DNA from: Promethearchaeota archaeon
Lineage (GTDB): Archaea; Asgardarchaeota; Lokiarchaeia; Sigyniarchaeales; SOKP01
Assembly (NCBI GenBank): GCA_013375475.1
Contig: JABXKD010000057.1
Location: forward strand, 14,132 to 24,714
Direction of reading: 5' to 3'
DNA length: 10,583 nucleotides
Part shown: positions 5,944-6,240 of the stretch, one piece after another
How positions within the stretch are numbered: position 1 is the first letter of the stretch
Layout of the letters: the number at the start of each line of letters is the position of its first letter
The notes under the pieces: generated by a model
What the model saw: the letters and a program-made list of their open reading frames with translations, nothing else
What the model was told of the DNA's origin: nothing
Database searches by the model: none
Position numbers and translations under genes: made by a program

Positions 5944-6240
5944 TATTGTTGCCTGCGCACCAACTCAAATTTATCACTTAATGGTAATACCATAAATCAA
6001 ATAAGTTCTCTCGTGCTAGGCGGTAATTTCTATGCCTTTTTGGGGCATAATCATGTCTGCATGCTGGGTCTGACTCCAATCTCATCGCACGGTAAAACCG
6101 TTAATTGCTAGATTAAGAGCCCATTTTTGATGCAGTAAATTGTTGATTAATAAATTCAGGATGTTTGCATAACTTTGCGCGCGTAATCACGATTATCATA
6201 CGCGTCCTCGAATATGCTAATGCTCCATCATCATTTTCCC
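5944..6240 (-). ncRNA. Three-hairpin H/ACA pseudouridylation guide RNA (or cluster of guide RNAs)
   Basis: No ORF, visibly GC-richer than flanks. Hairpin A: lower stem GCAUA/UAUGC (6217-6213/6171-6167), K-loop AUGA…GUGAUUA, ACA 6164-6162. Hairpin B: CUGCAU/AUGCAG (6135-6130/6062-6057), variant K-turn, ACA 6056-6054. Hairpin C: GCCU-A-GCAC/GUGC-GC-AGGC (6021-6013/5960-5951), K-turn UUGA/GUGAUAA, ACA 5949-5947. Confidence 0.8.

Follow-up and report, generated by a model that had tools for sequence, protein, structure and literature searches.

A predicted three-unit box H/ACA guide RNA of Promethearchaeota, most likely the Asgard counterpart of Pf7/Pab40/Afu4

The closest described systems to the RNA reported here are the three-hairpin box H/ACA small RNA (sRNA) Pab40 and its homologues Pf7, Pho40 and Afu4, described here, as are all published systems below, from excerpts of the cited papers. 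Motif 1 of Pab40 guides pseudouridine (Ψ) 2588 of 23S rRNA, motif 3 guides Ψ2016 in helix 69, the target expected for motif 2 of Pf7 and Afu4 is the equivalent of Pab 2678, and a further sRNA, Pab35, is responsible for the pseudouridines that in Escherichia coli are the work of RluE, RluB and RluC (PMC2377435). HgcG (RF00064) has been equated with Pab40 (PMC4652768), and stems II and III of Pf7 have their homologues in the Haloferax hairpins (PMC2584109). In sR-h45 of Haloferax volcanii, stem-loop 2 (SL2) produces the two pseudouridines of helix 69, leaving UNUN unpaired and acting at ACA distances of 17 and 19; SL1, which has a long upper stem and only 3 + 5 pairs between guide and target, modifies a U that follows two paired U's (PMC7075261). 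The rules quoted for a single unit are 14–15 (up to 16) nt from the ANA box to the pocket-closing pair, a GA stem of 10 layers and a lower stem of 7–9 bp (PMC2377435, PMC4652768); Pyrobaculum sR201 and sR202, with lower stems of 5–6 bp, are still counted as canonical (PMC4652768). Here we describe a real, expressed and widely conserved H/ACA-type RNA with three units in Promethearchaeota. It lies on the minus strand of a 10,583-nt stretch of DNA from a Promethearchaeota archaeon (GenBank assembly GCA_013375475.1, contig JABXKD010000057.1, positions 14,132 to 24,714), which as a whole is called the window below and from whose first letter all positions are counted. We read the RNA as one ∼300-nt archaeal box H/ACA guide sRNA with three predicted guide units, and give this reading a probability of about 0.82.

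The RNA lies in a gap (5895–6296, bounded by 5894 and 6297) that holds no open reading frame (ORF) of 50 amino acids or more. From about 6240 to 5935 the minus strand of this gap forms three hairpins of the stem/pocket/stem type, each followed by ACA after 0–2 nt and each containing a tandem G.A motif, that is, a kink-turn (K-turn) or kink-loop (K-loop). The initial annotation, made from the letters of the window, had located the ACA boxes at 6164–6162, 6056–6054 and 5949–5947 and had quoted the motifs AUGA/GUGAUUA and UUGA/GUGAUAA; these coordinates are correct and both motifs are in the sequence. The span that it gave for the RNA, 6240–5944, agrees with ours on the 5′ side, where the end would lie at 6240 judging from a conserved GGG there and from covarying pairs up to 6236, and is too short on the 3′ side, where the RNA continues beyond 5944 to at least 5939. 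The principal features are listed here, with counts from a genus alignment (29 sequences) and from a family alignment (36 sequences from 12 genera and two other families).

5935–6240, minus strand: whole RNA, ∼300 nt with approximate ends; block conserved in 29 of 36 other genomes of the same genus
6167–6217, minus strand: hairpin 1; covariation, both stems also recovered by RNAalifold
6162–6164, minus strand: ACA box of hairpin 1, 2 nt after the stem; ACA in 29/29 genus and 33/36 family sequences
6057–6135, minus strand: hairpin 2; all six lower-stem pairs covary, as do pairs of the canonical stem (C-stem) of its K-turn
6054–6056, minus strand: ANA box of hairpin 2, here ACA, 0 nt after the stem; in the genus ACA in 17, AUA in 11 and AAA in 1 of 29
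5951–6021, minus strand: hairpin 3; covariation, including A-U to U-A at 6002–5969; stems recovered by RNAalifold
5947–5949, minus strand: ACA box of hairpin 3, 1 nt after the stem; ACA in 29/29 genus and 31/36 family sequences

The case for a conserved structure comes from comparison across genomes. A DNA search found the stretch in the 29 genomes of the genus at 68–95% identity, and gave only chance-level short matches in 24 sampled genomes of other genera. In the genus alignment, made with MAFFT, 93.8% of the cells were paired and 21 of 57 pairs had changed on both sides; none of 500 shuffles reached any of four measures and 1 of 500 reached the fifth, and partners that had been slid along the alignment paired in 33–44%. 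The family alignment behaved in the same manner (89.9% of cells paired; 35 of 51 pairs, in 209 cells, changed on both sides), with no shuffle of 500 as high and 27–44% pairing when slid. RNAalifold, without a supplied model, returned the stems of hairpins 1 and 3 and part of hairpin 2. We then used covariance models (CMs) of hairpin 1 with its flanks (model R1) and of hairpin 3 (model R2). Within the class, R1 matched 98 of 121 genomes; the family (12 genera) accounts for 94 of these, out of its 102 genomes, and three other families gave weaker matches. All but two genomes have a single copy. R2 found hairpin 3 downstream on the same strand in all 26 family loci examined. The initial annotation had named as tests covariation of the stems in relatives, retention of the ACA boxes and K-turns in homologues and the absence of a match to another RNA family. 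The stems of all three hairpins are kept by compensatory changes, the ACA boxes and G.A motifs are retained (with ACA, AUA or AAA as the box of hairpin 2), and no Rfam family matches: cmscan gave nothing at the gathering score over the whole window and nothing significant at E up to 10 over 5700–6500, where the matches to snoR160, Plastid-clpP, SNORA40, RnaG and sR46 were noise, far below their cut-offs.

The RNA is also present in transcript libraries. Part of the stretch is contained in 15 runs recorded as RNA, and in the contigs from four metatranscriptome libraries (four studies) all pieces fall within 5939–6228, with a depth of zero over 5600–5905 and 6246–6600, i.e. across the genes on either side. 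Nearly the whole RNA is covered by one contig of 292 nt, and another, of 210 nt, is identical to the window. As carry-over of DNA would also have covered the flanks, the contigs favour a discrete, abundant RNA. In contigs of the RNA libraries X3 and X6, which are from different studies, adapter sequence stands directly at 6007, inside the pocket of hairpin 3, and in X3 contigs also at 6208 and 6214; these junctions may be preferred fragment ends or cleavage sites. On the 5′ side, the TATA-like element that the initial annotation had seen at the right distance upstream is conserved, as a block ∼25–30 nt upstream of the GGG at 6240, and by its position it would be an archaeal TATA box:

6261–6269, minus strand: TATA-like element UUUUUUAAC; TTTTTTA(A/G)C conserved in the closer genus sequences

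These data bear on the idea that the block is a cis-acting untranslated region of a neighbour (the minus-strand ABC ATPase gene at 6297–7022 or the plus-strand gene at 5424–5894), or consists of chance hairpins in an AT-rich spacer. The block does lie directly downstream of the ABC ATPase gene, and its single-sequence folding energy is unremarkable, but the contigs end at the borders of the element and leave both neighbours at zero depth, the element has a conserved promoter-like block of its own, and its covariation is accompanied by near single-copy conservation across 12 genera. We regard an origin of this kind as extremely unlikely.

The three units fit the quoted H/ACA rules to different degrees. 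Hairpin 1 has a lower stem of 5 bp (GCAUA 6217–6213 with UAUGC 6171–6167; 7 bp in some genera), an upper stem formed by CGCGUA 6204–6199 and UACGCG 6185–6180, and a K-loop (6198–6186) in which UGA 6198–6196 faces GAU 6188–6186; both G.A pairs are present in 29/29 genus sequences. Its pocket strands are the 5′ guide UCGAGG (6211–6206) and the 3′ guide GCAA (6178–6175), and the box is AUA in the three family sequences that lack ACA. An extra pair, 6205–6179, is standard in 28 of 36 sequences (as A-U, G-C or G.U) and is A.C in this genome. Where it forms, as in most genomes, the GA stem has 10 layers and the ANA box is 14 nt from the closing pair, in agreement with the rules; in this genome the values are 9 layers and 15 nt. 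Hairpin 3 has a lower stem of 9 bp with a bulge (GCCUA and GCAC, 6021–6013, with GUGC and CAGGC, 5960–5951), an upper stem 6005–5999/5972–5966 and a K-turn of GA 5998–5997 opposite GA 5975–5974, of which both G.A pairs are again found in 29/29 genus sequences. Its GA stem amounts to 9 layers plus a bulged U, its guides are GAGAG (5′, 6012–6008) and GUUG (3′, 5964–5961; GUUA in all other sequences), and its ANA box lies 16 nt from the closing pair here and 1–2 nt further away in most genomes.

Hairpin 2 is less regular. A lower stem of 6 bp (CUGCAU 6135–6130 with AUGCAG 6062–6057) is followed by a long, interrupted upper stem (GGCUC 6121–6117 with GAGUC 6076–6072, and AAUC 6114–6111 with GAUU 6081–6078) and by a K-turn composed of G6083.A6109, A6082.U6110 and the C-stem 6108–6107/6088–6087. 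The first G.A pair is present in 29/29 genus sequences, while the pair at 2b.2n is A.U in 13, A.A in 15 and the canonical A.G in 8 of the 36 family sequences (A.U, A.A or C.A within the genus); the canonical A.G in these eight members supports the motif as a K-turn. As a correction to the initial annotation, the K-turn of hairpin 2 is non-standard in this genome, with A.U at 2b.2n. The candidate 3′ guide of hairpin 2 is ACCCAG (6069–6064); counted by hand from the alignment, 33 of 36 sequences retain ACCC and 22 of 36 the whole of ACCCAG. The ANA box is 15 nt from the closing pair here; in hairpins 2 and 3, other genomes have 1–3 nt more. An ACA-to-upper-stem distance of 14–16 nt holds for all three hairpins in this genome.

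The genome encodes the proteins that such an RNA would need: Cbf5 (428 bits), Nop10 (55.6 bits) and two proteins of the L7Ae family (82 and 49 bits). The gar1 gene that had been reported ∼2.2 kb away is present as a Gar1-like ORF at 3488–3736, 2208 nt from the RNA, with a Pfam score (25.6 bits, E 1.1e-5) below the cut-off of 29.3. By analogy with solved Pyrococcus H/ACA ribonucleoproteins, we infer that L7Ae would bind the K-loop or K-turn of each upper stem and that Cbf5 with Nop10 and Gar1 would occupy each lower stem and ACA box. The strands of the internal loop would then pair with large-subunit (LSU) rRNA on either side of a uridine, which Cbf5 would turn into pseudouridine.

Which uridines might these be? 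The only 23S gene of the assembly is on contig C263, in a 16S–23S operon with a bacterial-type 16S (loci L022, L033). Compared with the archaeal 16S on C222, the C263 16S reaches just 70–87% identity, and this in patches. C263 appears to be contamination, and the assembly lacks an LSU gene of the archaeon itself. The C263 LSU was discarded as a reference since the operon is bacterial, and we used instead the LSU of a genome of the same genus (G008) together with the archaeal small-subunit (SSU) rRNA of this genome. E. coli numbering was obtained from an actual E. coli 23S gene, to which landmarks were aligned; this copy was one base short and 1 was added. Target scans at broad settings gave best scores no better than those on shuffled rRNA; only patterns of invariant bases are informative. 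We looked for places where the invariant pocket bases could pair in LSU and SSU. Each such pattern had one match in LSU and SSU. The patterns were set after the hits had been seen, and with this post hoc character equally good patterns arose in 3.9% (hairpin 1), 0.66% (hairpin 3) and 37% (hairpin 2) of 5000 shuffles.

The guides of hairpin 1 match UUGC[UU]CCUCGA (unpaired bases in brackets) with 4 + 6 Watson–Crick pairs, the first unpaired U being E. coli 2496, and the site is identical in 13/13 genus LSU fragments that cover it and in 3/3 LSUs of other genera. U2496, in the peptidyl-transferase region, is thus a well-motivated predicted target. The hairpin 3 strands GUUA (GUUG here) and GAGAG match UAAC[UAUAA]CUCUC in the loop of helix 69 with 4 + 5 pairs and leave U1915 and U1917 unpaired; U1915, and perhaps U1917, are likewise well-motivated as candidates. 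For hairpin 2, the 3′ strand ACCCAG can pair with CUGGGU at 2579–2584, the sole such hexamer in LSU and SSU, which is followed by U2585 and U2586; U2586 or U2585 is a tentative target. The initial annotation had proposed one transcript guiding three rRNA sites; the predicted pairing involves both pocket strands in hairpin 1 and in hairpin 3, which also has a rival site (see below), and only the 3′ strand in hairpin 2.

Other sites were tried for hairpin 2 and rejected. For a 14-bp match at LSU U841 (G008 numbering), only 3 of 14 genus LSUs carry a U at that position, 8 having C and 3 having A, and where genomes have inserts the 3′ arm no longer pairs properly. Neither the P-loop U2249, nor the sites of the patterns GAGCCC and AGAGCC, nor a model with a large pocket led to anything beyond a chance-level match, if a site was found at all. 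Two likenesses to rRNA are probably due to chance: GAGUCAG in hairpin 2 equals a segment of the G008 LSU that is not found in the other genera checked, and the invariant 5′ pocket strand of hairpin 3 (CACGAGAGAAC, 6015–6005, minus strand) resembles, in the same sense, the sarcin–ricin loop (G008 LSU ∼2935).

How do these sites compare with those of Pab40? We take the E. coli positions of RluE, RluB and RluC to be 2457, 2605 and 2580; the corresponding Pab35 sites are Pab 2549, 2697 and 2672. All three pairs differ by +92, which places Pab 2588 at E. coli 2496 and Pab 2678 at 2586. By this mapping the predicted targets of units 1, 2 and 3 follow the same order as in Pf7/Pab40 (E. coli 2496, 2586 and the helix 69 loop), and because the three predicted sites would be the Pf7/Pab40/Afu4 trio, the RNA would most likely be the Asgard counterpart of this group. 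Pf7, Pab40, Pho40 and Afu4, from Thermococcales and Archaeoglobus, likewise carry three H/ACA units in one RNA, and the middle unit is atypical in both Pab40 and the present RNA, Pab40.2 having a very long 3′ loop strand (PMC2377435). In contrast, similarity to Pf7/Pab40 is not detectable in sequence or by CM, and the lower stems are shorter here.

In its pairing, hairpin 3 resembles the UNUN mode of sR-h45 of H. volcanii. Four target bases are left unpaired by SL2 (PMC7075261), as UAUAA is by hairpin 3, and the hairpin 3 distances, counted by hand, are ∼17 and 19 in most genomes, as in SL2. SL1 has 8 and 10 bases to the G.A pairs (PMC7075261), compared with 11 and 10 in hairpin 2, and unlike SL1, hairpin 2 has no 5′ guide that we could find. 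sR-h45 as a whole differs from this RNA in having two stem-loops with a long spacer and no counterpart of unit 1.

Outside the three hairpins, the RNA has additional conserved pairing, formed by the following strands.

6224–6236, minus strand: basal K-turn, box C-like strand (C-stem AAAU, bulge GAU, GA, U, GGA)
6152–6161, minus strand: basal K-turn, box D-like strand (UCC, U, GA, AUUU; CUGA at 6159–6156)
6144–6149, minus strand: closing helix of hairpin 2, 5′ strand UAAUCA, pairing with UGAUUA 6053–6048
6048–6053, minus strand: closing helix of hairpin 2, 3′ strand UGAUUA, partner of UAAUCA 6149–6144
6031–6035, minus strand: closing helix of hairpin 3, 5′ strand GCAUA, pairing with UAUGC 5943–5939
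5939–5943, minus strand: closing helix of hairpin 3, 3′ strand UAUGC; a contig of RNA run X1 extends to 5939

The box C-like and box D-like strands form a terminal K-turn that joins the flanks of hairpin 1, as the box C/D definition has it, and the ACA of hairpin 1 consequently sits in an internal loop. Of the tandem pairs, G6229.A6156 occurs in 36/36 and A6228.G6157 in 34/36 sequences; all four C-stem pairs and two of the three pairs of the non-canonical (NC) stem have changes on both sides in the 36 sequences, and RNAalifold, again without a supplied model, also finds the NC stem. The helices beyond the other two ACA boxes close hairpins 2 and 3, so that these boxes too lie in internal loops. 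For hairpin 2, 95.7% of the cells are paired and 3 of 6 pairs have changed on both sides; in the distant homologues G060 and G049, and as a single case in G087, the two strands differ in sequence yet stay complementary. For hairpin 3, 87.3% are paired, a script found a helix of at least 5 bp in 29 of 36 sequences, to which a compensated 5-bp helix read by hand in L014 can be added, and 6 of 36 sequences lack the two strands jointly; here too the strands of G060 and G049 differ in sequence but remain complementary to each other. Pooled, the two helices are 92.2% paired and 5 of their 11 pairs show two-sided changes, a level that 3 of 500 shuffles also reach; the covariation is modest because the helices are mostly invariant. 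A second K-turn around hairpin 3 and a small hairpin at 6049–6031 were dropped, as their pairing, judged by eye, is not kept across genomes. In the excerpts of the H/ACA sRNA literature consulted we found no description of closing helices or of a basal K-turn, and Pab40, Pf7 and Afu4, beside which the C/D-type K-turn at the base of unit 1 and the helices around units 2 and 3 set this RNA apart, were compared by description only. The role of the basal K-turn and the closing helices is probably to make the RNA more stable or to provide L7Ae with a fourth site.

Could the basal motif make this a composite box C/D and H/ACA RNA? Such an RNA would use the basal C/D motifs (box C-like AUGAUGG and box D CUGA around hairpin 1), with the hairpin 1 K-loop as C′/D′, to recruit Nop5–fibrillarin and, like eukaryotic composite small Cajal body-specific RNAs (scaRNAs), guide 2′-O-methylation as well. 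The two classes can be physically linked, since Pab21 (H/ACA) of Pyrococcus shares one transcript with a C/D sRNA (PMC4652768). With the K-turn of archaeal box C/D sRNAs the basal motif has in common a box C-like RUGAUG, a box D CUGA, tandem sheared G.A pairs and a 3-nt bulge, and the full C/D pattern includes, beside the conserved G.A and A.G pairs and the covarying C-stem, a variable 3b.3n and adjoining G-C pairs. In archaeal C/D small ribonucleoproteins, however, spacers and guides of ∼12 nt are expected; here approximately 24–25 nt separate C from D′ and C′ from D, and they are folded into covarying stems and the H/ACA pocket. Whereas C/D sRNAs enclose two ∼12-nt guides, the basal motif encloses a whole H/ACA hairpin and no conserved methylation guide. 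We saw no conserved antisense block adjoining D or D′ in the aligned sequences, nothing single-stranded of this kind stands by either box, and the bases upstream of box D pair with the C-box strand. A true C/D guide function is unlikely, and we consider the composite reading very improbable. The related proposal of a new H/ACA architecture, with a helix beyond each ACA, a true C/D K-turn clamping unit 1 and four L7Ae sites, in its boldest form with recruited Nop5–fibrillarin, seems to us improbable; if true, this boldest form would be an Asgard composite C/D–H/ACA particle, otherwise known only from the scaRNAs of eukaryotic Cajal bodies.

A number of observations weigh against the reading as a three-unit H/ACA guide sRNA. 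The single-sequence fold of 5940–6245 is not exceptional (minimum free energy −69 kcal/mol, z −0.81, equalled by 24 of 100 shuffles), for which reason the structural case rests on comparison; that the structure is more than chance is shown by the comparison across genomes and not by this energy. The contigs from RNA libraries carry no strand or exact-end information. The lower stems of hairpins 1 and 2 have 5 and 6 bp instead of the canonical 7–9 bp, and hairpin 2 has 12 rather than 10 layers from the pocket to the G.A pairs, a variable insert within its 3′ pocket strand and no 5′ guide match in LSU or SSU. No guide–target covariation was found for hairpin 1, as GCAU guides face an unchanged UUGC, and in some genera U replaces A at the fourth base of the 3′ guide, which leaves 3 bp. 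Hairpin 3 requires five unpaired target bases, and a rival site with canonical geometry, UAGC[UG]GUUCUC near E. coli 808/809, would offer 4 + 6 pairs. The +92 mapping between P. abyssi and E. coli depends partly on the E. coli pseudouridine positions assumed above. Finally, the HgcG CM (gathering score 77 bits) has no match in the window and none at E up to 10 over 5700–6500. A whole-genome search with this model gave only noise of 9–12 bits, and in a control with 14 genomes, including Methanocaldococcus jannaschii, nothing exceeded the cut-off either. HgcG RNA was presumably first described in M. jannaschii; with a control that failed in 14 genomes, the negatives of that whole-genome search are not to be trusted.

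Some of these points would suit a structured, L7Ae-binding RNA of H/ACA-like shape without guide function, for instance a chaperone or scaffold that pairs with rRNA in ribosome assembly, or an orphan: hairpin 2 lacks a convincing bipartite target, the pairing of hairpin 3 is atypical, the 3′ guide of hairpin 1 has only 3–4 bp, and helices beyond the ACA boxes are outside the described H/ACA motif. Yet the invariant bases of hairpins 1 and 3 match sites shown or predicted to be modified by related archaeal guides (PMC2377435, PMC7075261), the ACA boxes, the length of the hairpin 1 GA stem and the ACA distance fit a catalytic geometry, and the full set of H/ACA proteins is encoded; we hold an RNA without guide function to be very unlikely, though hairpin 2 taken singly may be a non-guide scaffold. 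The initial reading of the locus as an H/ACA guide RNA is supported by covariation, ACA boxes, tandem G.A pairs, distances, RNA-library contigs, the four protein genes and LSU complementarity.

The initial annotation had called such RNAs poorly catalogued in Asgard archaea. Asgard archaea do encode the H/ACA proteins, yet none of the papers retrieved by our full-text literature searches describes an H/ACA guide RNA from this group, and Rfam is blind to this one. The covariance models provide a handle for annotating the RNA in hundreds of Promethearchaeota genomes, and the specific pseudouridine sites predicted lie in the peptidyl-transferase region and helix 69. The comparison with Pf7/Pab40/Afu4 suggests that Euryarchaeota and Asgard archaea have in common a single ancient guide of several units, together with the three LSU sites that it targets. 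Two of the three sites are also guided in eukaryotes, where snR46, as we assume, guides yeast 25S Ψ2865, the eukaryotic counterpart site. The eukaryotic H/ACA small nucleolar RNAs snR191 and U19 (helix 69) follow the same hairpin–pocket–hairpin logic with an ACA box and targets in the LSU core (PMC7075261). Eukaryotic guides differ in having two hairpins, an H box and no K-turn, whereas all three units of the present RNA contain a K-turn or K-loop of the archaeal type. An ACA box within an internal loop also raises the structural question of how Cbf5 reads it.

The neighbourhood of the RNA is conserved only loosely with respect to gar1. We searched for gar1 in five genomes of other genera (G079, G116, G094, G114, G060) and found it in four; in three of these it lies 2.8–5.9 kb from the RNA in the same convergent arrangement and in one it is 1.2 Mb away, and with the query used it was not found in G060. 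Directly upstream of the Gar1-like ORF and TFB, the plus strand of 154–3325 encodes a 695-aa protein with DUF5591, TGT and TGT_C2 domains, followed by an overlapping radical-SAM gene, a pair that we take to resemble ArcS–RaSEA of archaeosine synthesis in tRNA. The 156-aa ORF that adjoins the RNA (5424–5894, plus strand) has a weak, below-cut-off match to MAPKK1_Int, a Roadblock/LC7-type fold (E 8.9e-4). On the other side, 6297–9039 contains divergent cobalt/ECF-type transporter genes, with the ABC ATPase (6297–7022) and CbiQ on the minus strand and CbiM and a PDGLE-domain (CbiN-like) gene on the plus strand.

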